Shown here: positions 11,393 to 63,303 of the stretch, one piece after another
Position numbering within the stretch: position 1 is the stretch's first letter
Layout of the letters: the number at the start of each line of letters is the position of its first letter
DNA from: Octopus sinensis
Taxonomy: Eukaryota
NCBI RefSeq assembly: GCF_006345805.1
Contig: NC_043005.1
Span: 86,056,001 to 86,120,000, forward strand
Direction of reading: 5' to 3'
DNA length: 64,000 nucleotides
Made by a program: the position numbers and the translations under genes
Notes under the pieces: model-generated
Database searches by the model: none
Told to the model about the DNA's origin: nothing
Seen by the model: only the letters and a program-made list of their open reading frames with translations

Positions 11393-11405
11393 AACAAATA
11401 TATCG

Positions 11406-11623
11406 TTTTCTACTCAAGGCAGAAGGACCGAAATTATGGGGGGAGCGGGTCAGTCGATTAGATTGACCCCAGTACGCAACTGGTAGTTAGTTTATCGACC
11501 CCGAAAGGATGAAAGGCAAAGTCGACGTCGGCGGAATTTGAACTCAGAACGTAACGGCAGACGAAATACGGCTACGCATTTCGCCCGGTGTGCTAACGTT
11601 TCTGCCAGCTCACCACCTTAAGC
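11406..11623 (-). mobile_element. SINE family A with alternative (non-Tx1) tail and 13-bp TSD
   Basis: Full head and body; tail ...CCCCATAATTTCGGTCCTTCTGCCTTGAGTAGAAAA; TSD AACAAATATATCG at 11393-11405 and 11624-11636. Confidence 0.9.
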
Positions 11624-18299: not shown

Positions 18300-18860
18300 C
18301 ACTAAATATTCTACCTGCATATAAATACAAACTGTGGGTATAAGGGTATGGTTATCAACTGCGTATATTTCCTATTTAGTCCTGGGGACGTTTCATTTAT
18401 AAGGATCTTCTGTATTTGTCTGAGAGTTGGGTCCTGTGGGTGCTTGAAGTAAATGCGGATGTCAAGTTGACCCAAGTTGCCTCCATGTTTGTAGCGTATA
18501 GAAAACTGATTTTCGTTGTCATATTGTCTCAAATGAACATTTAGTCTTTCCGCAATACTTCTAGATGTCTCACCTTTGTATGTTATGTTTCTGTCTTTAC
18601 AAGAAAATTCTATGCACATTATGCTGTAGACTAAATTTCTAGTTCGACAGCTATTGCCAGGGCTAATCCTACATACAATGCAGTTATCACTGGTGCATAT
18701 GGTATTCTCAAAAGGGTGCGCCCTATATAGTTGTGATCTGATGCTGAGTTTGGTCTCCTTCAGAAATTTCCTAAATCTATGGGTTAGTTCTCAATTGGCT
18801 GTAGCCTCTACAAACATCACTCCTTGATATGTGTCAGTTTTATACCATGTGTACACCCTG
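18300..18860 (-). mobile_element. Penelope-like (Neptune-type) GIY-YIG fragment
   Basis: VMFVEATA...CTSDNCIVC...CRTRNLVYSIMC...YKGETSRSIAERLNVH...DPTLRQI...INETSPGLNRK. Confidence 0.75.
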
Positions 18861-20190: not shown

Positions 20191-20880
20191 GGACTAAACT
20201 CAGCACCATGGTTTCGGAACGGAATTTTACGAGTGCATCTTTCTTATAAATCCCTGATTTACGTCGGACAAACTAATCACTTTTCGTGTCTTCCAGATCT
20301 TTACGCTGTTAGTTTAAACATTCCCGAAATCAACTTTGCTATCCATCTTCCCTTGTCGATTAAAATAAATAACGAATCAAATACTGGTGCCAATATAATC
20401 ATCATCTCCCCCTCTTCAAAGAATTCCTAGCCTTCTGCTTGAATCAGAAAATATTATTAGCATTACATACATCAACGTTCAAAATCGCTAAAAGCATTTT
20501 TAGAGTGTTTGTATTTTCACTGAGTTCCTGTTTTTTTTTATTCCATTCGGAATAGTCTTTACAAGTTAGAACGAATGTTATTCTCTGCCTAAAAATTGTA
20601 CAGCCACGCTACTTTCATAATTTAAAGACATTTACAGTCGTTAATTTGATTTGGCAGCCCTGGGTGGTGAACCAATTGACACAGTGCTATCGTTAATTCA
20701 CATTTGGTATTCTCTTGACACACAGAAACAGCAGAATTTGGAGCATATTTTGATAAACGAGGTTAATTTCTCTGGTTTAGGCTGATATCCCTAATTGGAC
20801 AGTCGACTCTTCATACAGCTATGTTTATTACATCGATTGCTAGCAGTGGTTTATTATTATTATCATTATTAGGCGGCGGA

Positions 20881-20942
20881 GTGAAAGGCAAAGTCGACCT
20901 CGGCGGAATTTGAGCTCAGAACGTAACGGCAGACGAAATACG
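20881..20942 (-). mobile_element. SINE family A, downstream part of the copy split by the Tx1 LINE
   Basis: Minus strand CGTATTTCGTCTGCCGTTACGTTCTGAGCTCAAATTCCGCCGAGGTCGACTTTGCCTTTCA continues the head at 26274-26334. Confidence 0.9.
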
Positions 20943-21343
20943 AATTTCTTTATTGCCCACCGGGGGCCAAACATAGATATGGACAGTACAACTGATGGGA
21001 TCAGTGAATCGATATGATTTTACATAAATGTGACATCAAAAATAAAATACAATACATAAAAATCGAATGGAATACACAGTACAAAAACAAAACAAATGAA
21101 GCGATGATCAAGTTACGCTCCGATCCCACAAGCCCCGACCTACCGCTGATACCTTTTTATTTTTCCTTTTTTTTTTCCTCGTCTATTCACACGGTTCCTT
21201 GCACGCACAACACTCGTGCAACATACTTCCATCTCTTTTGGAACGTACACTCTGACAGACACCTCTTCTCCAGCCACAGTTTCCTTTTCAAATGAAAAGA
21301 AAAAAAGGATCGTAAATTGTCACCAGAGATAAAGTTGCCTGTC

Positions 21344-23938
21344 TTAATTCCTTTTATCCCAGTCTTCCATACAGCCTCTTTTGCTATTGCTACAACCGTG
21401 AGAAAAAGAATTCTTACCTTCGTTCGTTAGAACTCCCGGTGGGTCAATTTTTATAATTGACTCAGTCGACAGCCGTACTCTTCCTTCGCCGGACAACAGA
21501 TGTTCAGCATAAGCCCACATTTCAGTTATCTCCGGACACTGAACAATAGCGTGAGGGACGGTTTCCCTGTCCCCCCCGCATCTTGGACAGGTCGGCGACT
21601 GACGTTTACCATGTCTTGCGAGCTTATCCCAAACGGGCAAGGCACCTCTGTAGCATTGCCAGGTTAAGGACTTTTGGAAGTTGTCCAACATTCTCAACCC
21701 GAATGTACGATGAAACAAGCTGTCCAGTTGAATAAATCCGAGACCTAGAGTCGACCCCAGGCCATCGTCGCATTCAGACTCTACCAACCCACTATATAAA
21801 ATCCGTGTGGAACCCCCACCGCTGGCGTTGCCCGAGCGCCGGAACAGCAAGAGGGCCTTACGGCACTCTTTATGCCACTCACTCGACCTCGGTCTACGAG
21901 AACACCAGGCTTCCTGTTCGCAAAAACTCTTGAACTCAGGGAACATTTGTCTGGCCAGCGGAGACCACACCCGTTCACTATCCAGGAGAATCCAGAGGTG
22001 CCTCAACCTCAACGCATGTCTGCGCATCATTAACCAAGGCATCCCTAAACCTCCATTTAAAGGCTTTTGACAGCAGACAGAGCGTTTCACAAGTGGCGAC
22101 CTGCCCTTCCACAAAAAGCGAAAGAGCTGTCTCTCCAACCTGATCAACCACGAATCCGGACAGGGCACGACGGTCAGGCGGTAGGTAATGACCGATGCGA
22201 TAAACACATTGGCCACCTCCGCCCTCCCTTTCAAGGATAGCCACCGCCAAGACCAGGTCTTGACTACTGCAGCCACCCTGCTCAATACCTCCGTCCAGTT
22301 CTTCTCTATCTGGAGGCCTGGTCCAAACCAGACTCCCAGCAACTTAACCGGTCCCTCCGTCCAGCGCCTAACAACACTGTCTGAAGGCATCGACTTGCCA
22401 ACCCAGGTGCCGAGCTGCAAGCCGACCGATTTTTCCCGGTTAATCTTTGCTCCTGCTACCTCCTCGTAAGCCTCAATAGTCTTACCTACTTCACGTAGGC
22501 GTGCCACTGTGGTTACACTGATAGTGATATCATCCGCGAAAGCCGTAACAAACTCCTCTAGTCCTGGTTCTCTCGGGATGCCACTCAACCTTTGCAGTAA
22601 TGGCTCGAGAGCCATCACATACAAAAGTTGTGAAAGCGGACATCCTTGACGAACCGAGCGTCTGATGCAGAACGGCTTCGAAAGGAAACCGTTCACCCGA
22701 ACTATCGAGTCAATGTTGTGGTACAAAGCGATAAACCACCTGAGGAAGCCAAGGCCCAGGCCAAACCGCGCAAGTACAGTCGCTAGGTATCGATGGTCAA
22801 CCCTATCAAAAGCTTTAGACTGGTCCAAATGCACCAATGCCCCACCTTTGCCAGATTTATTACCAAACCTCTCTATGGTATAGCGAATAAGATGGAGGGT
22901 ATCCTGAATGGTTCTGCCTGGGATGGCACATGTCTGTGCCTCCCCGACTATACCATTCGCGACACGCGCCAACCTTTTTGCTAGAACCTTGGCCAAAATC
23001 TTCACTTCTGCGTTTAACAGAGTGATGGGCCTGAAATTCTCTAGAACGTCCCCCTTGTCCGGGTCCTTTCTGACCAACGTCACTACTCCCCGGCGCACAG
23101 ATCTGGGGATAAACCCATTCTGTTTCCAGTTCGCGTACACGTCAGTCAGTAGTTGCCCGAACAAGTCTGGCATACATTTATACAGCTCGTACGGAAGACC
23201 ATCAAGTCCCGGTGACTTACCCGCTTTACAATCGGCCAAAGCCTCCATCACCTCCTCAGGTGTTTTTGGCCCTTCGCAAGACTCCGCATCCGTCTCCGAG
23301 AGGCACGGCAGCCCGGTAAGAAAGTCCTCGAGGGCTCTCCCACCACCAGGAGCGCCGTCACCCCCGAACAGCTGGGCGAAGTACTCCCGAAAGACCTCAC
23401 ACATTTTCTCGGGTTCGTTTATCAAGACACCATTTTGATTCGTCAAAGACCGAATAGAGGAACTATTTCCTTGCCGAGCTTCCACCACTCGGGCCCATCC
23501 AGCGGCTTTGATTCCTTCACTTCCCATTGCACGTAACTTAGCTCTGGTAATACTTCCCATGTGGTGGGCTTCAAGATGCTGGTTTAACTCCAGTCTTTTC
23601 ACCCTCGCTTGGTCTGTATTACCAGTCCTCCAGGCTTCTTCTAGTTCCTTAACTAGACCATCTCCTATTTTACGTCCCTTCTTAGCTAAACTTATGCTAA
23701 ACCTAATAGACTCATATTTGATGGCTCTTTTTAGGGCGTACCACCATTTGTTATTAATGATGGTACCTGTTAATGCCCTCTGTATTAACATCTTGATCCG
23801 CTTTCTGTACTCCTCAATCGCCAAAAGGGACGTATTGAGTTTCCAGTAGCCAGATCCCTGTCTATGCAACTTATCTACCGTCAGTTTACAGGTAACCATC
23901 TTGTGGTCACTGTAGCTGACTAGAAAAACTGTGGACAC
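21344..23938 (-). CDS. Tx1-like ORF2, reverse transcriptase part (frameshifted from the endonuclease part; C-terminus continues to ~21187 after further frameshifts)
   Basis: SDH, YWKLN, KSPGLDGLPYE, NFRPITLLN, LDQSKAFDRV, VRQGCPLS, FADD, GGLGMP, CPRC...ETVPHAIVQC. Confidence 0.93.
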   Translation of the reverse strand: MSTVFLVSYSDHKMVTCKLTVDKLHRQGSGYWKLNTSLLAIEEYRKRIKMLIQRALTGTIINNKWWYALKRAIKYESIRFSISLAKKGRKIGDGLVKELEEAWRTGNTDQARVKRLELNQHLEAHHMGSITRAKLRAMGSEGIKAAGWARVVEARQGNSSSIRSLTNQNGVLINEPEKMCEVFREYFAQLFGGDGAPGGGRALEDFLTGLPCLSETDAESCEGPKTPEEVMEALADCKAGKSPGLDGLPYELYKCMPDLFGQLLTDVYANWKQNGFIPRSVRRGVVTLVRKDPDKGDVLENFRPITLLNAEVKILAKVLAKRLARVANGIVGEAQTCAIPGRTIQDTLHLIRYTIERFGNKSGKGGALVHLDQSKAFDRVDHRYLATVLARFGLGLGFLRWFIALYHNIDSIVRVNGFLSKPFCIRRSVRQGCPLSQLLYVMALEPLLQRLSGIPREPGLEEFVTAFADDITISVTTVARLREVGKTIEAYEEVAGAKINREKSVGLQLGTWVGKSMPSDSVVRRWTEGPVKLLGVWFGPGLQIEKNWTEVLSRVAAVVKTWSWRWLSLKGRAEVANVFIASVITYRLTVVPCPDSWLIRLERQLFRFLWKGRSPLVKRSVCCQKPLNGGLGMPWLMMRRHALRLRHLWILLDSERVWSPLARQMFPEFKSFCEQEAWCSRRPRSSEWHKECRKALLLFRRSGNASGGGSTRILYSGLVESECDDGLGSTLGLGFIQLDSLFHRTFGLRMLDNFQKSLTWQCYRGALPVWDKLARHGKRQSPTCPRCGGDRETVPHAIVQCPEITEMWAYAEHLLSGEGRVRLSTESIIKIDPPGVLTNEGKNSFSHGCSNSKRGCMEDWDKRN

Positions 23939-24591
23939 TCAACTATGGACTTATCTTTTTCTCTAATTAAAATCATATCTAGATATGTTCTGGTAGACCC
24001 GTCACTATTTGACCACGTCCACTGTGGAGTGTTCGGGTGCTCCAACCTATATGGATCTGCTAGCTGAAATTGACTTAGCAGATCCCGAAACCCTGGGTTA
24101 CATTTTCTGTTCATGTTCGAGTTTGAGCCAACACAATCTGTGTGTGCTGCACATATTGTATTAGAGTCTCCTAACACTACTAGTGAATGCGACGTGGCTA
24201 GGAACTTTCCTAGGCCACGAAAATATTCAGTTTGCGGGCCAATAATGTTTGGTGCGTAAATAGCGACCAGCCTGATTGTCTTGCCACAACTGAATGTCAA
24301 GTCGAGAACGACCAGCCTGCCTTCTGGGTCAGAAAAAACCAACTTTTTCTCGGCTACCCGGTTTCTTTTTAGTAGGACCAACACCCCACCCCCACCTCCC
24401 GCCCGACTCGGAGAAACGTATTTCTCGTAGCCGTTCAGGAGGGGAAGCAGATCTCTTGGCCCCTTCACCCGGGTTTCCGTTGCAACAATTACATCCAAAT
24501 TTCTCGACCGGATGTCATTCAGAAAGCGTCCTTGCTTCCAGCTTGACAACAGGCCATGAACATTTAAACAACCAATGTGAATAGCCATCAC
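23920..24591 (-). CDS. Tx1-like ORF2, apurinic-like endonuclease part
   Basis: IGCLNVHGL, VATET, GGGVLVL, DPEGRLV, AIYAPN, LGDSN, WTWSN...YLD. Confidence 0.93.
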   Translation of the reverse strand: MMAIHIGCLNVHGLLSSWKQGRFLNDIRSRNLDVIVATETRVKGPRDLLPLLNGYEKYVSPSRAGGGGGVLVLLKRNRVAEKKLVFSDPEGRLVVLDLTFSCGKTIRLVAIYAPNIIGPQTEYFRGLGKFLATSHSLVVLGDSNTICAAHTDCVGSNSNMNRKCNPGFRDLLSQFQLADPYRLEHPNTPQWTWSNSDGSTRTYLDMILIREKDKSIVECPQFF

Positions 24592-24599
24592 TTACCTGT

Positions 24600-26133
24600 T
24601 TAATTAGGATTGTCCTTTTTTTGATCCAGGGTCGGAGGTGGACGGTCTTGGGAAATAGATTTGTCAAAATCCCGTCTCACCACCGACACAGAATTATCAG
24701 GTGGAGGGGGAATCTCCACCGTTTCCTTTTCTCGTGGGATCGGAGCTGGTAATCCATGAAATATCGACTTGTTAAAATCTAATCTCAATGAAGATACAGT
24801 CTTTCTGTACTTATTTTGTAGAATTCTATAAGTCTTATTTGAGACTTCATATATGTCGTAATTGATAAATTCCTCTGAAAGTTTATCAATTTTTTTTACA
24901 GTCTCTATGAGTTGAATGTCTCTCATGAGCTCAGTATCTTTAGTGTATACGGCTATTATGCCTTTTTCTTCTTTTTCTCTTCTGGCAGTCTTTTTTGGTC
25001 GTTGTTCTGTAGTAGTCGCCGCTCTCGGCTGGGTTGCTGGTTGTATTTTTCTTTTGTTTGTTGTTTTTTTCTCATCTGTTTCTTCTTTATCTTCTTCCTC
25101 TTTGTCTTTTTTCTCCCTTCCTCCTCTTCTTCATTTTCCTTGCAGTTCCTTCGAATGTGGCCTAATTGACCACATAAAAACATCGAGGTTTTCGGCCCTC
25201 AACAAACACCACGAGGTTCTTCTCCCCTACCTCAATTGTCTCAGGAATTGTTTGAATTATTTTAGGGTCCGCTTGAATGAGAAGATTAATTGTTTGACCA
25301 TCCCAGCGTGGGTTTTCCGTAGCGGTAGCCTGGAGGAGAGTAATTTTTTCTACCTCTTTGATTAGGACTGCCGCCAACAACCACATAGGTTCGACCTCTG
25401 GCGGGACCCTTGTAATTTTTATTCGCGACGTCCTCATCCCCATATAATAGGGGATTAACTCCACGTCGTTCGTTTTCAACGTTTCAACTGAGTTCTTGTG
25501 TGCTATTTCTTTATTGGTGAACCTTACTTCCACCGTTCCGAATTTTTTTCCTCTTCTCAGAAATACTACGCCGCCCAATATTGGCTTTAAGCACTTTTCT
25601 ATTTTCTCTTCTGACATTCTTTCAATTTTTCTTTTTTGTAGACAATATGTTTTGAAAATTATTGTTTTTTGCTTTTCTTCCTGTAATAACTTTTGCGGAG
25701 GTTCAATTTTCACACCGTTGTCAGTTATTTCCATCATTTTGCTGTATTTCATAATTTCGCTTTTATTCGTCGACAGTATCTGGGTTCCACCCCCAGCAGC
25801 CAACGCAAAACTTTTTTTTCCATTTTTTGGTTCTATCTGGATGCTAGGCACATCAATTATTCTCTTCGACACAATGCCTTTGTTCTCTGGCAAAGTCGGA
25901 AACTCTTCTGGTGAAAGTTCTGACGAGCTCTCAGACACATCTCCAAAAATATCAAATATATTATCCTCTCTGCTATTCCTTCTTGTAGCGGGGGAAACCC
26001 CTATTTCCTTGTCTGTAGTTGGCTCCTCGCCGGACATGTATTTCCTCCTCACAACAGGAGAAACAAGTATTTCTGCTCCAACGGTAGGCTCCATGCTAGG
26101 CGACATTCTTCCCCGCAAAGGGGGAATGAACAA
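24600..26133 (-). CDS. Tx1-like ORF1 (gag-like), broken into three frames by two single-base indels
   Basis: ORFs 25162-26133, 24956-25183 and 24600-24926 join by successive -1 shifts; knuckle CF[L]CGQLGHIRRNC follows VFVEGRKPR. Confidence 0.8.
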
Positions 26134-26273
26134 CGCGTGCTACCACAAGCACTAAGTGTTTTCAATTGAAAACTCCAACAGTTAAGTTATTCAACAGTTT
26201 AACAAGAAACAACAGTTGTTAACAATATTAACACCACGAAACAGCAATTCTTACTTCACGAACACATGTGCGA

Positions 26274-26334
26274 CAGACGAAATACGGCTACGCATTTCGC
26301 CGGGCGTGCTAACGTTTCTGCGAGCTCGCCGCCT
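26274..26334 (-). mobile_element. SINE family A, 5' head of the copy split by the Tx1 LINE
   Basis: Minus strand AGGCGGCGAGCTCGCAGAAACGTTAGCACGCCCGGCGAAATGCGTAGCCGTATTTCGTCTG. Confidence 0.9.
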
Positions 26335-28300: not shown

Positions 28301-28802
28301 ATGTAAGATTCAGAAAGGTTTAGCTTCTGACTTTTTGAACCAACCCACAAAACGAATACTGTGATATAATATGAAAGATTTCACCGTCTCAATCTAGAGT
28401 AAGGATTCATAATGTTTCAGTGCCTTGGCAAAAGATCCCTAGGTACCGCACGACATAGATTTACTTGCTCGTAAAGAACATTTATACTAATTTTACATAC
28501 AATACGAGAGGACCCCACATCACAATAAGAAACGCAAAGAATGGCAGGTTTGTCCAACTCAGTCTCAGCAGCATCAAATCAGATGAATAGGCCGAGGAAG
28601 TTGTGTTTACAAGTAATCTAGTAATCACATTAATGACAGTACTCCATCATGGCCGCAACTCTTGACAAAAACCAGTAAACGTAAAAGTAAATAGTTTTGA
28701 AATATTGTTGGCACTTTGACAGAAAATATATATTCCATGTTTCTCAAGGAAACATGAATACTAGTTCCTGATTTACTTTTGATTTTGATATTAGCGTTGT
28801 AG

Positions 28803-29190
28803 ATACGGCGAGTCTCCAGAACGGTTAGCATGCTGGGCAAAATGCTTAGTGGTATTTCGTCTGCTGTTACGTTCTGAGTTCAAATTCCGCCGAGGTCGAC
28901 TTTGCTTTTCATCCTTACGGGGTCGATAAATTAAGTACCAGTTACGCACTGGGGTCGATATAATCGACTTAATCTGTTTGTCTGGCCTTGTTTGTCCTCT
29001 CTATGTTTAGCCCCTTGTGGGTAGTAAAGAAATAGGTATTTCGTCTGTCTTCATGTTCTGAGTTCAAATTACGCCGGGTCGACTTTGCCTTTCATCATTT
29101 CGGTATCGATAAATTAAGTATCAGTTGTGTACTGGAGTCGAAGTAATCGACTGGCCCCATACCACAAAATTTCAGTCCTTGAGACCAGAG
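28803..29190 (+). mobile_element. Nested SINE family A pair: a Tx1-tailed copy inserted into an older copy with the alternative tail
   Basis: GGTATTTCGTCTG repeated at 28851-28863 and 29035-29047; the inner copy ends ...GTAGTAAAGAAATA; the outer copy resumes and ends with ...AAAATTTCAGTCCTTG. Confidence 0.88.
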
Positions 29191-30142
29191 AAGAAAAGAA
29201 AGGATATACGTGTTGTAGAACACTAAATAAAAACTATGTTACCAAATTCTTATGTAAACGGAGAGGAACTTTCGTGAAAGCATTTAAAAAAATAAACATT
29301 AAAACGGTAAGATCAATAATACAGCCCTAGGTTCTAGAACTCGTAGCTGTGATCAGCCCGTTCTCATTGCAATTAAATAACCGATATTACAACGGTAATA
29401 TAGCATAAGTGAACGGGATCCCAATCCGTGACAGGATCCCATTGTGGACTAGATCAACGTGAAATGAAGTGCTTTGCTGAAGATCGAAACCACGATCTTG
29501 CTAGCGTGGGAACCCCCCCCCCCCCACTAAGCCACACCCTTCACTAGCCGTTTCAGTATGTCTTTAATTTCGGTGATTCATAAACGTGATATGTTTGTGA
29601 GATGGGATCGAAAAGCTAGAATGTGAGGCATTGTCAATTCAAGTAAATCGAACGATTGGAATCTGGGTCTTAAGATTAGTGAGTATGTATGCTGAAATCT
29701 AAACTACTTTCTGTTTTTGAGAATGGTACGCACAAAGTTAGCCAAATCTGAAATATGAACTTGTAAAGTAACTGAAAAAAAAACATACGTAAATAAAAAT
29801 AAAAATAAAAATAAAATTAAAAAATAATAAAAAATATATATGATAAATCCTTGAAATCTGAAACATCGATGACCCCCAGAAAACAAGCATCTCCGAAATA
29901 ATAAATCTCCAATCTATATACTGTAAGCATGAGAAAGAAAAAACAAAGATTAATACAGAACAAAATAGATTAGGAATAAAGAAGGCAACTCTGTAAAACC
30001 AAAATGCGTACAGCCATTATTTTTCTTCTCCCGGTTGAAAGTAGTTTGTATGCATTGCATGAGACTCTTGCCAAAGCTTCGCCATTATCTTGACAAACAG
30101 ATAGATGCAGTATTATGATGATTATTTTTCTTATTGTTGCTA

Positions 30143-30851: not shown

Positions 30852-30885
<34 letters not shown>

Positions 30886-30953
30886 ATAATAATAATAGTA
30901 ATAATAATAATAACGATAATGATGATTTCATTATTAATGGAAATGGTAGTAGT

Positions 30954-30991
<38 letters not shown>

Positions 30992-31010
30992 TTACTACTA
31001 CTACTACTAC

Positions 31011-31077
<67 letters not shown>

Positions 31078-31131
31078 GATAATGATGATTTCATTATTAA
31101 TGGAAAGGGTAGTAGTTACTACTACTACTAT

Positions 31132-31172
<41 letters not shown>

Positions 31173-31176
31173 ATAC

Positions 31177-31224
<48 letters not shown>

Positions 31225-31249
31225 TAAGAACGATAATGATGATTTCATT
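30771..31249. repeat. Triplicated compound microsatellite unit (163, 163 and ~153 bp)
   Basis: Unit TTAATGGAAA.GGTAGTAGT(TAC)n(AAT)nAACGATAATGATGATTTCATT starts at 30771, 30934 and 31097. Confidence 0.85.
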
Positions 31250-32281
31250 TATTTGTTGCAAGTGCGAAGGATGAGGGGAAGAATACAAAACAGACATAAA
31301 GTGCGGGAGTTTACATTTAATTAAATGATAATAAAATAAAATTTTATTAAAAATGAGAGAAAAAAGTAAGCATACACAGTATACACTGGAAAAAAGGGAA
31401 AGTATGTATAGCATACAAAGGTTGCGGGGGGGGATGATAGAGATGTGGCATTCCTGATACAGGAAGGGCTGAAGGGATAATCGAGGAACCCCACAGTCCA
31501 AGATTTTCCTGAAACCCCAAGAGCAAGTGCCCTCTCCAATTCTTTTTCTTTGACTCACATATCTACGCTTAGAGAGGTACCATCCACTATTGTCATTTTC
31601 GCACATTTCAATTACCTTTCAATAAACTCAGTCGAGGACAGCACTTCCCTCTCTACTCCCAATTTCCTTTCCAAGTGAAACTTGAAGAAGTCACTGAAAG
31701 CTCTACTAAAAAGGAATTATCTGTCTTCATGCCTTTCAGCCTTGTCCATCAAATACTATTTTTCGCCACAGCCAACAGGCAGAGGAGAACTGCCTTGACT
31801 AACCGATTGAAGGTGGGCGCCAGTGCGATTGTCACTACGGACTCGGCCGACAGACGGATCCGTCCCTCACGTGTCAGCAGCTATTCGACATAATCCCACA
31901 AGTTAGCAACACCCGGACAGAGAGCGAGGGCGTGCAGAACGGTTCTGTCACTCTGCGTGCACCTCGAACAAGTCCATCTGACTACACACCCATGCTGTAG
32001 AGTTTATCTTGAACCAGTAGCCCCCTCCCATTCCCTGCCCGGCACGGTAGCATTGCTAGGCCAAGGACATCTGGAAATTACCCACGATAATCCCTTGTCG
32101 GAAAGTCCTCCAGAACAGACAAGCCAATTTGTTGTTGTCGGCGTTCAGAGTCTCCACAAGAAGGTCGTCTCACTTACCCGCCATTAATCTTCTATAAATT
32201 TTAAGGCGGGACCTCCACCGATCCCATTGCACGACTGGTAGAGGGCTGTGAGTGCCTGACGAGATTTTAGGTGCCAGGCGC
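31241..32281 (-). mobile_element. 5'-truncated decayed Tx1-like LINE, family 2
   Basis: Colinear homology with 46514-47517; WHLKSRQALTAL motif similar to WHKECRKALL in the intact RT. Confidence 0.85.
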
Positions 32282-32501
32282 CATTAATAACATAGCAAAA
32301 GCCAAACATATAATTATAATAATAATCAAGAAAGGTACTGACAAATATTTTCCCCAGAAACCACAGAAAGCAACAATCTATAAACTCATAAAATTGTGTT
32401 GACTTCAATCGCCCACATTCTCAGGATGTTTCTATCCATCTAATATGTACGTACCTATAGTATCTGACTGAGATCAAACCAATCGGAAAAAAAATAATAA
32501 T

Positions 32502-33020
32502 CTTTTCTACTATAGGCACAAGGCCTGAAATTCACATCGACTAGTACTTAATTGATCGTCCTCGAAATAATGATTGGCAAATTCAGTCCAGGTGAAATTT
32601 GAGCTCAGAACGCAATGACAGACGAAATACTGGCCAAACATTTTGTACCATCATGTTAACAATTTTGTCGGCTCATCGAATTAAGCATGAACTTCCTACC
32701 TGTAATAACGAGAAATGGCAATACAAAGAGAAAAAGGAAAATATTTTTTCTACTATTACACGTAGTAGTAGGACAAATGTTAGAAATAATAGGTGTAAGA
32801 GAAGACGTCCTAAGAATTGGTCCAAATTTTGGCACAAGGCTAGTAATTTCCGGGTGCAAGTCAATTACATCGACTCTAGTGCACAACAGGTATGTATTTT
32901 ATCGTTTCAGAGAGGATGAAAGACAAAGTCCTTCATTTGAACTCAGGGCGTAAAATTGGAAAAAAATACTGCTAAGCATTTTCTTCGGCTCGGTAATGTT
33001 TCGGCTGGTTCACCGCCCTT
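32502..33020 (-). mobile_element. Two degraded SINE family A copies
   Basis: TCTTTTCTACTATAGGCACAAGGCCTGAAATT...GAAATTTGAGCTCAGAACG and TTTTGGCACAAGGC...ATCGACTCTAGTG...TTTGAACTCAGG. Confidence 0.65.
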
Positions 33021-46513: not shown

Positions 46514-49500
46514 ATTTCATTTATTTGCCCCAAGGGTGCAGGATTACGGGGACAATAGAAAGACAGACATAAAGTGTGGGGGTTTACATATAATGAAATG
46601 ACAAAAAAATGAAAGAAAGAAAGAAAATAAGCTTACACAGTAAACACTGAAAAAGAAAGGTCATATGTATATAATAGACAGAGGTTCAAAAAGAGTGTCG
46701 GGGAGGATGTGGCCCTCCTGATACAGGAACGCCTCTAGGGATAATCTAGGAACCCCACCCTCTCAGATTTCTCTGAAACCCAAGAGCAATTGCCCTCTCC
46801 AATTCCTTCTCTCTGACTCACAGGTCTACACTTAGTGAGGTACCACCCACACTTGCCATTTTAACAACTTTCCCCTACCATTCAATAAACTCACTCGAGG
46901 GCAGCACTTATATCTCCACTCTCAATTTCCTCTTCAAGTAAAACTTGAAGAAGTTAATGAAAGCTCTGCCAAAGAGGAATGTATCTGTCCTCATGCATTT
47001 CAGCCTTGTCCAACAAATAGTCTCTTTCGCCACAGCCACCAGGCAAAGGAAACTACATTGCCAGCCCGATAGAAAGAAGGTGCCGATGCGATCATCAGTA
47101 CAGACTCGGCCGACAGAGGGATCCATCCCACCCATAATAGCAGCTGTTCGACATAACCACACAATTCAGCACTGACCGGACACTGAACGAGGGCGTGCAG
47201 AACGGTTTCATCGCTCTGCGTGCACCTCGGATAAGCCCGTCTGACAGCACATCCGTACCTGTAGGATTTATCTCAAACCGGTAGCGTCCCGCGGTAGCAT
47301 TTCCAGGCCAAGATCTGGAAATTGTACATGATAGTTCCCAACCGGAAAGTCTTCCAGTACAGACTAGCCAGTTCATTCTCGCCAGTGCCCAGAGTCTCTC
47401 CGAGAACGTCGTCACACTTACCTGCCACTAATCCCCTAAAGCGGAGTACCCACCGATCCCATTGTCCGACTGGTACAGGGCTGTGAGCGCCTGACGACAT
47501 TCAAGGTGCCAGGCGCTTAGTCTCCATCTTTTCTTCACCCAGGATTGCAGCTCCGTCAAGGAGACTAGTTGCGGAAAGACGAGCCTCAGAAACGGGGTCC
47601 ACACACCCTCACCGTCCAGAAATCGTCGCGGGTGGCGTAACTTAATGGTGTGTCTGCGCATTAGGTGCCACAGCATACCTACCCCGCCACTCAGAGGATG
47701 CTGGTTACGAATTGACCGCCTGATTATTGGAACGCATCCTTCTATAATTTAAATTAGGCGCTCCGACTTGGTCAAACTGTAACCGGGGCAAAGCACGACG
47801 GTAAGGCGATAAATGATAACTGAGGCGATGGAAGCATTCAGCACATTAGTCCGACCTTTAGGCGACAGTTTCCTCTCAGCTCATTTCTGGGTAAGACTAG
47901 CCACCCTGTTCGCGCACCTCGTCCTATTTTTTTTATCAACCTAGGGGTCGGGACCAAACCAGATCCCGAGAAGTTTAACTGGTCCGTCGGTCCAGCGTCA
48001 TCCGGTGGCATCGTCCTTCCTCTCCAGGAGCCCAACCACAAATCCACCGCTTTGTCGGCGTTGTTTTTAGCCCCTACAACAGTCTCATTTTCCTTTAGGA
48101 TTTTGCTGACCGTCTCCACTTGGGAGGTGTCCGATACCATGAAGGTGGCGTCATCCGCGTCTGCCCACACCACTCTTCCATGCCCCTGTTCGAAAGGAGG
48201 ACCCTCAATTGTTCCTACTTACACAGTTTCCGCTCGCCTGACAATACATACAGAAGAGGCGACAGCGAGCAGCACTGACGGACCGAGCGTGCGCTGCCAA
48301 ACGGCTCCGGTAGGTGGCCGTCTTCTTTCACCACTGAATAGGTGTCACTGTGCATTGCAGCGACTCAGCCTCTGAAAACGTGTCCGAAATCGTCTGCTGT
48401 CGGGACGGCTTCCAAGTAGAGATGGTTGATCCTATCGAATGCTTTTGATTGATCCAAATTGATTAGAGCACCCCCGAAGCCAGCTTTGGTCCAAGCCCTC
48501 TCTATGATATATCGCATAAGGTGAAGGTTGCTGTGGATAGACCTGTTCTAGACTGCACACGTTTGCGTTTCTCTGACCAGGCTACCGACGACAAGCGCCA
48601 GCCTTTTCGCTAAAACCTTGGCCAAAATCTCAAACTCTGTCTTTAGCAGAGTTATGGGCAAAACATTTTCTAGTACGTGCCCTTTGTCAGAGTATTGCCT
48701 CCGCAGTGTCACCACACCTCTGCCAACAGCACTAGGAATTCTCCCGTTCTGCTGGCAGTTGCGGTAAATGTTTGCCAAGAGGTCGCCAATCAAATCTTGC
48801 ATGAATACATAAAATATCGAGTAAACCGTCCAAACCGGGCAATCTGGGACTTGTTTGAGCGCATGGGCGGTAGTTCTGACAACGCAACCTTCGTATTTCG
48901 CTTTGAAGAAATTGTCAAGTGTCATTCTAACCTCTGTCACAACGGTCGGAATGCCCTTTTTAATCTCCTCTTTTAATTTGCTAACTAGTCTACTCTTCAA
49001 TTTATTTCTATTGCGTACTCTTTGCTAAATGCCATCGATTCTGCTCTAATCGCCCTCTCCAGGGTGGCCCACCACCGGTTGTTGACGATTGCCCCCATCA
49101 ACTACCACTTACCTAGTTCACTAACCCGGTCCATGTAATCTTTGTGTGCAGGAAAGGACTCGTCTAACTTCCAGCAACCGGGTCCCTGTGTACGGGTCCT
49201 ATCTAGCTCAACTGTGCAGATCACAAACTTATGATCTGTGTAACCGACCAACTTAAATTCAGAACAGCCTACACTATCCCTCTCCTCTGACCTAACAAAG
49301 ATTCTATCTAGATACGATCTAGATGATCAATTGCAGTTACTCGTGTTCACACTGGCACGTCAGAAAAATCCAGTCGGTACCTATCAGACAACTGGATGTC
49401 TCTGAGTAGGTTTTTCGAGGCTTTTGCATCCCTTTCATCTGTGTACTAAACGCACACGGTCCTTCCGGGTGTTAAAAATCGCATTCCGGTCCCCTACTAG

Positions 49501-51250
49501 TACTAAACTGCGAGACTTTCCCAGGAATATTCTAGACGCCTGAAGAATTCTGACCTTTCAACCCCTGTCGGGGCATAGACGAACACCGGTCTAAAGGTAC
49601 CACCGTCGCTGTCATTCACATCTAGGACCACCAACCTACCACCCGGGTCCAGGAAGATTGCCTTTACTTCGAGATCTAAGGATTTGGAGAATAACACTGC
49701 TATGCCGCCATCTGCTCCCGATAGACCGCATGATAAGAATATATCATAGTCATAGAAAATGGCGGCTAGTGCTTGTGCACTAGAAATCCTTGTCTCGCTA
49801 ATTGCAGCCACATGTACATCGAACGTCCTGAGATCGTTTAGCAATTGACCTTGCTTCCAAGCTGAGCTCAGGCCACGAACATCCACACATCCCACTCTGA
49901 AAACGATCTGAAAAACTAAATGGAAAATAGTCACTTACTTCGGATTTTGGGAGAGTCGGCTGACTCGGCTGCCTCGTCCGACTCATTATCATTAATGAAG
50001 GGCCTTCCTAAATTCCAGCTTTAATCTAAGAGATCCAAAGTCGTTTTGGTTCTAGGAATGTGTTTGTATCAGTTTTATCAGATGTCTGTCATGGGGTGCT
50101 TTCGACAGAAGTTTGTCGAACCTTACTCGTTTGTATCAGCTTGCTGTTGCTCTTGCGAACGACTATGATGTCGATGATGCATTCGGATTCTCTAGTAAGT
50201 TGTACGAGTTATTCTTGTGACTGGTGTTTCTCTTCGTGTATTTGATTCTGTTTTTGGCGATTTTTGTAGTTGTGACCATGGTTGAATGAGTGTGCATTGC
50301 TTTTGTTGTTGGGTTTTGGATGGATGTGTCGGTGCTGTTGTTAGTGTAGCCTATGGATCACGTGAATTTTCCTCGTCCTGTTTTTTTACTTTCAGCTTAG
50401 GACCGCTTTTTCTTAACTATTTTCCCGCTTTTCCCTAACACCAATCTTTCTTGAAACATTCAATTGCTCCTTGTCGCATGAAAAGGCTTCTGAACCGCCA
50501 ATGTTGGCATCGCTCGGTGTATCTGTGTCACCAGTCTTTAGGGATGGTCCTATGCTTATGTCACTACTGTGATATAAGCATAGGACCATTCTAACCTCTA
50601 CTCCAAGTTATTCTTCCTTGATCTTCCGGCCCCTTGGAATTCCTTCCCAGGATGTTTCTCTTCACCTCACTTGCCACAATTCAAGTGGAAATTCAGTTAC
50701 ATTAACATCCTGAATCATGAAGTGCAAACATAAAACTCGAGTCTTCGAGAGACTTCTCCTTTGATTTCAATCTACCTGTTGTAGCGCTCCAGACACTTTG
50801 TGATGGCCCCATTGAATTCCCCCAAGTTGTAGGTATCTGGGGCCTATGTCACAGCCTCCCTCGCTTTCTCGTTCAGCTTGGAGAACAATCACAGCTCACA
50901 GGGACTTTAGGGTTGGAGGTAGGTTGAGGTGGTGTTTTGATACCTGTATCTATCAAGTAGTTTGTTTCCAAAATGGAATTTTGAACTGGAGTTTTGGCTT
51001 GGGTTGGGTGCACCGGACTTTTGCGACGAAATCTATTCCTGAACTATCTAAAAACTTCCACAAAATTTCTTTGTTGAGTGTCTGGCGAGAAGAAACCCAA
51101 TGGATGTAGGTGATGTCCTTAATATCGCCATTAACTTCTCGTTCGATTTGCTTTGCCTGACTCCTTGTGCCAGTGAAAAACAAATGCATGACTATACCAA
51201 AAGAGTGAGATATAGCCAATGGTCAAATGTCGTTTGGGTCACCTCTTCTC
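46514..51250 (-). mobile_element. Decayed, roughly full-length Tx1-like LINE, family 2
   Basis: Fragmented endonuclease (VGCVDVRGL...ISETR...DPGGRLV...VYAP) and RT (LPITLLKTEFEILAKVLAKRL, LDQSKAFDR, ADADD); probable ORF1 remnants 50000-51250; 5' limit uncertain. Confidence 0.85.
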
Positions 51251-62252: not shown

Positions 62253-63031
62253 ACATAAAATTAAATGATGACATGAGCGAAGAAGTATTCAAAACATACA
62301 AGTAATAAAACGTGAATACATAAATATTAATTAATTAAAAAGATAAATTTGAATGCTGTTCAAAATAGTGAATATTCACTGATATCTAAGCTGTTTTCTT
62401 ATTGATTCAATGATTTCTGTTTCTCTTTCAAGTCTTCGTAATTTTTTTCCTTTACTGATTAGCTTTTTTCGTGTTCATATTTTCTTCTTTTTCTTTTCGA
62501 TATGTGTTCATATTTTTTTTCATACGTATTTATCTCTATTATATATTATTGGTTTTCATTTTATGCTGGTGTGTGTGAGTATGCATCGGTAAGCGTGTGT
62601 GAGCGTGCATAATAACTCATTAATTTTAATCAGGCAATAGTAATTAATGATTAATATATCCATGTCTGACGGAAGTATACCGGGACAGCTAAAGTGTACG
62701 CATCAGTTTATTAGCAGCTGATGCCGTCCATTAGTCTATTTAACAGACCATGGCGCAATTACCATAATTCTTGCTCTCTCTTTAATATCCCCCGTCGATA
62801 GTTCGACTTTATTTCTATCCATATCACTCTCCAAGTACCTTATTATCTGTCTAAATCACTGTCGTGCTTTATATCATACCCGCTATCTACCTAGCTATAT
62901 AACAATATATCCCTGACAATATACAGAATATCACATACACACACACACAAACATATATAAATACCTACGTACACACATATATATGTACATATGTGTGTAT
63001 GTATCTGTATATATATATATATTTATATTAC

Positions 63032-63263
63032 AAGGCGGCGAGCTGGCAGAAGCGTTAGCAAGCCGGGCGAAATGCTTAGTGGTATTTCGTCCGTCGTAAC
63101 GTTCTGAGTTCAAATTCCGCTGAGGTCGACTTTGCCTTTCATCCTTTCGGGGTCGATAAATAAAGTACCAGTTTCGCACTGGGGTCAATGTAATCAACTT
63201 AATCCGTTTGTCTGTCCTTGTTTGTCCTCTTTATGTTTAGCCCCTTGTGGGTAGTAAAGAAAT
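63032..63263 (+). mobile_element. SINE family A, full length, with Tx1-like tail
   Basis: Complete head, body and tail ...TATGTTTAGCCCCTTGTGGGTAGTAAAGAAAT. Confidence 0.9.
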
Positions 63264-63303
63264 ATATATAATAATATTACACACACGCACACATGCATGT
63301 AAT

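Follow-up and report, generated by a model that had tools for sequence, protein, structure and literature searches.

The locus at 28787–29219 raises the question of how a SINE without a head of its own came to lie within an older member of its family. The window (the whole stretch of 64,000 nucleotides that was analysed) is AT-rich animal DNA that is rich in microsatellites and contains 13 head-core matches to a repeat of ∼230 nt, which we take to be an octopus SINE. The repeat is short, dispersed, high-copy and non-coding, is flanked by target-site duplications of 13–20 nt and reaches a very high depth in four public runs. Contigs from these runs (X1, X9, X14 and X15; at most four studies) were compared with the region 28700–29300. 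The expected mark of a tRNA-derived head is ≥60% identity to a tRNA together with A and B boxes; a tRNA gene search with ARAGORN returned 0 genes, and an Rfam search of 63020–63300 gave no tRNA match. Neither the tail pattern, searched in metagenome, viral and prokaryote contigs, nor the SINE-core pattern, searched in metagenome contigs, had any match.

The nested locus was divided into the features below. Private letters are letters absent from all young copies in the window, which form a small reference set; a few of the letters counted are subfamily markers.

28787–28803, plus strand: left copy of the decayed target-site duplication of the outer SINE; 12 of 15 letters identical to 29203–29217 (4 of 200 shuffles as good), or 14 of 17 by eye when extended out to 29219
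28804–28850, plus strand: tRNA-like head of the older host SINE, with a damaged A-box region at 28813–28816 (private letters, X14 contig)
28851–28863, plus strand: 13-nt stretch common to the host and the incoming copy, identical to 29035–29047
28851–28969, plus strand: core of the younger inner SINE, 4 of 119 letters private
28876–28888, plus strand: B-box-like stretch in the inner core (putative label from the consensus; A- and B-box-like motifs were judged by eye)
28906–28909, plus strand: private T4 run in the inner core, from letter comparison
28970–29034, plus strand: LINE-like tail (type A) of the inner SINE, 62 of 65 letters identical to the tail at 63200–63264
29035–29152, plus strand: host SINE core, resuming at the target site; 10 of 118 letters private and 18 of 118 mismatched to the inner core
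29153–29202, plus strand: other tail (type B) of the host SINE, matching the tails at 11405–11451 and 32500–32545
29203–29219, plus strand: right copy of the outer target-site duplication, paired with 28787–28803

From left to right, the locus consists of a decayed duplication, a head, a core with a type-A tail, a core with a type-B tail and the second decayed duplication. The inner unit (28851–29034) is a 184-nt SINE body with the LINE-like tail and is enclosed by an older SINE with the other tail. The first-pass annotation had described a headless inner SINE whose LINE-like tail directly precedes the target, within an outer SINE of the other tail type, and each part of this description was borne out. 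The tail end GTAGTAAAGAAATA stops at 29034 and is directly followed by GGTATTTCGTCTG (29035–29047). Both cores begin with the same 13 letters (28851–28863 and 29035–29047), and no second head is present. The type-B tail of the host extends to about 29202, beyond the limit of 29190 given previously. In an alignment against four other copies, the host head passes into the inner core without a gap. The 5′ join lies within 28851–28863 or the 16 letters upstream, with 28835–28863 as its closest placement, and letters of the incoming type start at 28864. As in R2-like joins, the 5′ join contains no duplication, deletion or extra letters, and the cargo and target are homologous.

A LINE interrupts another copy of the same SINE in the window, with the following features:

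20927–20942, minus strand: 3′ copy of the LINE target-site duplication, starting at the same SINE base as 29035
20943–26270, minus strand: full-length L1/Tx1-type LINE, broken into pieces (ORF1 and ORF2 frames, Pfam domains)
26271–26286, minus strand: 5′ copy of the LINE target-site duplication, 15 of 16 letters identical to 20927–20942 (0 of 200 shuffles)
26287–26333, minus strand: head of the SINE hosting the LINE, whose body continues at 20942–20882

The LINE junction reads ...GCAATAAAGAAATT|CGTATTTCGTCTG at 20943|20942 on the minus strand. When both junctions are aligned on one SINE, the 3′ junctions of the LINE and the inner SINE fall on the same base, right after the TAG(C/T) of the head, which agrees with the shared target proposed earlier. 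For a second insertion in a 230-nt SINE, the same base would be hit by chance about 1 time in 230 (simple arithmetic). The target motif behind the tails was expressed as [CG]GTATTTCG. The 10-letter target word occurs 12 times with at most one mismatch in the 64-kb window, compared to 3.5 expected occurrences, and 0 of 100 shuffles reached 12. Nine of the 12 matches reside in SINE copies at seven loci, two of which are occupied at the same base. In the window, the two occupied target sites are each preceded by a LINE-like tail and none by a different one. The tail end GAAAT is complementary to ATTTC of the target and could form a small hairpin at the junctions (29029–29042 and 20935–20948), possibly by chance; these hairpins fold no better than shuffles, and the same applies to the tail hairpin (z −1.6 to 0.2).

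ORF2 of the LINE matches Pfam Exo_endo_phos, RVT_1 and zf-RVT, corresponding to an APE-type endonuclease, a reverse transcriptase and a zinc-binding domain. ORF1 contains a CCHC knuckle that is split over two frames, and both ORFs are broken. The combination of two ORFs, APE, reverse transcriptase and a C-terminal zinc domain is a trait of Tx1 elements that L1 has too and is not diagnostic alone. We use “Tx1” as a reasonable working label for 20943–26270, which, judged by its sequence, could be another L1-group element. Among named relatives of the LINE protein, the best is a hypothetical protein of Argonauta hians (62%), and none of the 120 relatives listed bears a clade name. In the fish Coilia grayii, the locus tags of such relatives run consecutively along a single contig, hinting at a tandemly arrayed related LINE. 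Close copies of the LINE exist, because up to 75% of its sampled words are present in public runs. No RNA data set is on record as containing these words, which carries no information on expression. The one copy of this LINE in the window (1 of 1) sits at the SINE site, and the putative target preference is based on this copy; for Tx1 families, the criterion described is that more than 20% of flanks lie in one repeat (PMC4494074, in part).

Additional features were observed around the LINE and its relatives. The two copies of its duplication (26271–26286 and 20927–20942) differ at the fourteenth letter, and the 5′ copy may derive from the RNA of the LINE itself and not from the host. The SINE hosting the LINE stops after 61 core letters and is followed by ∼11 letters resembling the inverted start of a SINE head, beside (ATT)n (20871–20882); this break is probably a deletion between two opposed SINE copies. 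Two older relatives of the LINE occur in the window, with about 47% protein identity, and each ends in CAT repeats. These decayed copies of an older family (46515–49907 and 31242–32285, both on the minus strand) end with AAATAAATGAAAT directly before the CAT repeats, which suggests a sister LINE family with a preference for the (CAT/ATT)n microsatellite. Such ends are expected for a clade whose families each prefer their own target, as described in part of PMC4494074. Behind an old LINE end, at about 30880–31240, a short unit containing runs of ATT and AGT recurs in tandem.

SINEs with either tail are present elsewhere in the window:

Type-A tailed SINEs, ending GTAGTAAAGAAATA: about 137–363, 63034–63264 and 28851–29034
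Type-B tailed SINEs: 11405–11617, around 32500–32680 and 29035–29202, plus older copies

The last 34 aligned letters of the type-A tail are identical to the LINE 3′ end at 29 positions, and BLAST gives 83% identity over 42 nt; the corresponding counts for the two older LINEs in the window are 18/34 and 15/34. By this comparison, the type-A SINE belongs to the SINEs with a LINE-derived tail, which have a 3′ end in common with their partner LINE. The type-A SINE is not restricted to the SINE target site. Two of the three complete type-A copies (about 137–363 and 63034–63264) are located in TA-rich DNA outside any SINE, the latter between duplications identical at 18 of 20 letters, and the type-A SINE may also be mobilised by a partner that prefers TA or through relaxed nicking. 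The type-B tail is not simply ancestral, and type B was recently active, because the type-B copy at 11405–11617 has a perfect 13-nt duplication (13/13). Among the window copies, heads of either type occur combined with tails of the other. The 63034–63264 copy is host-like through base 15 of the site and type-A from there on, as a converted copy would be, and 11405–11617 shows the opposite mosaic, in which a type-A head precedes a type-B tail. Head and tail exchange thus seems to run both ways. A Pfam search of 13 other ORFs yielded no partner LINE for the type-B tail. At 18314–18790 on the minus strand, a weak match to GIY-YIG that falls short of the Pfam cut-off (E 0.0002) may mark a Penelope-like fragment.

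The age contrast between the inner and outer parts is real though modest. Private letters account for 6/44 letters of the head in a gapped alignment (9/44 ungapped), 10/118 of the outer core and 6/184 of the inner copy. The annotation had called the outer SINE more diverged, and this view receives moderate support. The head plus the outer core (16/162) differs from the inner copy with p = 0.015 (p = 0.0004 with the ungapped head), and the head alone with p = 0.014 (ungapped, p = 0.0004). The outer core alone gives p = 0.064 against the whole inner copy and p = 0.11 against the inner core. The type-B tail of the host differs from the loose-end consensus at 6 of 30 letters (by eye), and inclusion of these differences gives p = 0.003. 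In the same test, two type-A monomers have 9/119 private letters, which is close to the value of the outer core. The outer duplication has decayed to 12/15 identical letters, compared to 13/13 and 18/20 in two monomers. In run X14, the head and the 3′ part of the host are found on contigs at flank depth (18.7 and 20.7), and the head is covered by one contig; the private letters of the host are therefore not common to a multi-copy dimer family. Taken together, the private-letter contrast, the decayed outer duplication and the flank depth in X14 indicate that the older SINE was already present and that the younger one inserted in place.

The tail–target junction recurs outside this locus, as predicted by the annotation. 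The joints and loose ends considered here are the best 15 of 481 and the best 24 of 1368, respectively, with three runs saturated. The joint from the tail end at 29034 back to 28851 was found in three of the four runs (at least 5, 2, 0 and 2 contigs), and 74 contigs of X15 carry tail letters as a loose end in front of 28851. Past the junction, letters of the type-A body appear in 40 contigs of X1 and 54 contigs of X15. Because of this joint and these type-A letters, both body types serve as hosts and longer stacks exist. Two X15 records (23 and 24) are contigs from other loci that bridge the junction with at least 31 letters on each side. Across all four runs, the depth just past the junction is 20–30% of the tail depth, or 12–16% after subtraction of the depth further in, and a simple model gives 7–43%. 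Summed contig depth is a crude measure that depends on a contig-length assumption and is no copy count; on this crude estimate, roughly a tenth to a third of type-A tails are followed by the target, and the junction is not rare. In X9, TA runs follow the tail in 6 contigs among the loose ends listed, and in 5 contigs the tail is joined to the AGAAT stretch of the head before 28840, a second in-register site in the A-box region. A type-B tail precedes the target in 0 of the 15 joints and 24 loose ends listed; the type-B query is too far diverged to draw in contigs, so this zero carries no weight. No contig spans the whole nested locus, and an empty allele was accordingly not observed.

We consider it likely that the endonuclease and reverse transcriptase of the LINE family inserted the younger SINE and that its 5′ end was joined by annealing to the host. 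At the level of sequence, this proposal draws on the shared register, the two tail types, the younger inner copy, the decayed outer duplication, the LINE-related tail and the recurrence of the junction. The LINE endonuclease would nick the bottom strand right after the TAG(C/T) of the head, and the SINE RNA, bound via its tail, would be copied from the nick. The top strand would be nicked about 13–16 letters downstream, as the 16-nt duplication of the LINE implies. The RNA contains the target sequence, so the cDNA would be complementary to the top-strand end and could pair with it at the same 13 letters. Synthesis would then resume in register with loss of the incoming head, and the product would consist of the host head, the new body and tail, and the rest of the host. 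An intact target would stay on the left of the product, where further copies could stack. The dimer shares 13 letters, whereas the LINE duplication has 16, which implies that three host letters were trimmed or that the second nick differed. Random truncation at exactly this register is unlikely. In R2, an RNA that keeps the upstream target gives precise joins in >80% of cases, and none without it (PMC3774820, in part), and 11 bp of homology can suffice for 5′ annealing (PMC11331408, in part). Of the earlier proposal that the LINE machinery moved the SINE in trans into its preferred target by homology-guided 5′ joining, the younger LINE-tailed SINE at the register of the LINE stands, as does an in-register join of the kind that annealing gives in R2. 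The word “preferred” reflects a single LINE copy, and the joining mechanism itself is assigned by analogy.

Alternative routes to the same structure were weighed against this insertion. Copying at the DNA level is unlikely; on this view, ectopic gene conversion or unequal crossover transferred a body, tail and target to an old monomer from a dimer that already existed, and no fresh reverse transcription took place at the locus. Dimer junctions are common enough to act as donors, the two-way mixing of heads and tails among the window copies would fit such exchange, and unequal recombination has been offered for tandem SINE arrays of a clam (PMC11481361, in part). However, host-private letters resume 17–19 letters after the junction (29052 and 29054) and lie at most 16 letters before the shared stretch (28834 and 28839). 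Both ends of the conversion tract would therefore hug the LINE cut site, and a first dimer at the register of the LINE would still be required. LINE-driven insertion of an RNA that was already headless and started at the target, either as a product of an array transcript or with a short target tag, is quite unlikely. Full-headed type-A monomers (about 137–363 and 63034–63264) are the simplest source, although type-A tail-to-body repeats with the 29034-to-28851 joint exist and would yield such an RNA. An inherited tag could also cause the one-letter difference between the LINE duplication copies, but a single letter is weak evidence.

If the whole dimer belonged to a dimeric SINE subfamily and had been mobilised in one piece, its parts would have aged to the same extent; instead, the inner copy shows about one third of the change seen in the head and outer part, the outer letters are single-copy in X14 and the junctions are followed by either body type. 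We regard this origin as highly unlikely, despite the duplication that flanks the whole unit, the frequency of the junction in public runs and the existence of dimeric SINE families (PMC3531059, in part). A dimeric master at the nested locus is rejected on the basis of the uneven ageing and the single-copy outer letters. Simple tandem duplication or an assembly error is hardly conceivable. The head-to-tail layout with a 184-nt period would suit a duplication, but the cores differ at 18 of 118 letters and the tails are unrelated, which departs from the identical bodies named by the annotation as the mark of a duplication. The different tails refute this origin, and an assembly error is rejected by the X15 contigs from other loci across the same junction.

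The structure of the nested copy bears on its fate. The annotation had inferred that the insertion regenerated a complete A-box/B-box SINE, which conflicts with the sequence of the unit. In the A-box region of the head, the four letters at 28813–28816 differ from those of all four young heads, and the only T4 run in the nested unit (28906–28909) was gained by the inner copy. A transcript that passes 28906–28909 would, with no other T4 run, end beyond the old tail. The related claim that such insertions convert older copies to the Tx1-tailed form is likewise conjectural; no terminator follows the new type-A tail, and the reverse mosaic at 11405–11617 is also present. Offspring with the new tail would need priming at the internal tail, and target letters after this tail on the RNA could pair with the nicked strand and enable it. 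We entertain as a tentative and rather doubtful idea that the SINE is self-homing, with the family itself providing the site at which its partner LINE lands. In RNA transcribed from nested copies, the new body and tail would be flanked by target sequence at either end, and such RNA could anneal to the nicked site at its 3′ end and to the host at its 5′ end, which would make re-insertion exact and self-reinforcing. If so, every insertion would equip an existing polymerase III head with a new body and tail, and would thereby offer a direct way for tails to be exchanged and subfamilies to mix in a repeat that ranks among the most abundant in octopus genomes.

SINEs make up about 11.6% of the Octopus vulgaris assembly (PMC13282606, in part). 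If the LINE aims at the SINE, the SINE would be both passenger and landing pad, insertions would be steered off genes and the growth of the two families would be tied. Replacement of SINE tails has been inferred in the literature (PMC5786205 and PMC11481361, in part), but the intermediate stages are seldom available. Such dimers, in their thousands, would each represent a dated intermediate whose crossover point can be read, and they would provide a natural test of annealed 5′ joining by an APE-type LINE in trans.

Insertion into an existing Alu has been reported; a literature search, which covered sources other than Repbase, Dfam, subscription journals and supplements, returned no paper on Alu-into-Alu insertion, no LINE that targets its partner SINE and no octopus dimers of this kind. 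Ohshima and Okada reportedly described tRNA-derived octopus SINEs in 1994, and these abundant tRNA-like elements, compared by description only, are likely of the same kind. The elements analysed here may be included in curated repeat libraries, for example that of PMC13282606, and tandem SINEs in general are already known (PMC10702118, in part). In the Scapharca (S.) broughtonii arrays (PMC11481361), a full-headed first copy is followed by head-truncated tandem copies, and mosaic heads and LINE-derived tails occur as in the octopus. The clam arrays differ in their truncated tails and in their attribution to unequal recombination, and the available part of that paper describes no LINE in the same register. 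The crocodilian Tx1-Mar LINEs and SINEU (Kojima 2015, PMC4494074) are a Tx1-group LINE and a SINE with a common preferred site in another repeat. SINE copies there build up in stacks through sequential insertion, and some SINE families have a partial preference (13–90%). They resemble the octopus case in the common site, the SINE stacking, the partial preference and the two sites per target. The crocodilian target is, however, a Mariner DNA transposon, SINEU heads are snRNA-derived, and neither cargo–target homology nor an in-register headless join belongs to the system as presented in the available part of the paper. R2 shares with the octopus case site-specific insertion and a seamless 5′ junction formed by cDNA–target annealing (PMC3774820 and PMC11331408, in part). 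R2 is, by contrast, autonomous, uses a restriction-like endonuclease and targets a host gene, whereas in the octopus the cargo would be a non-autonomous SINE that uses an APE-type LINE to enter dispersed members of its own family. The locus contributes a SINE-in-SINE insertion that can be dated, has two tail types and lies near the LINE.
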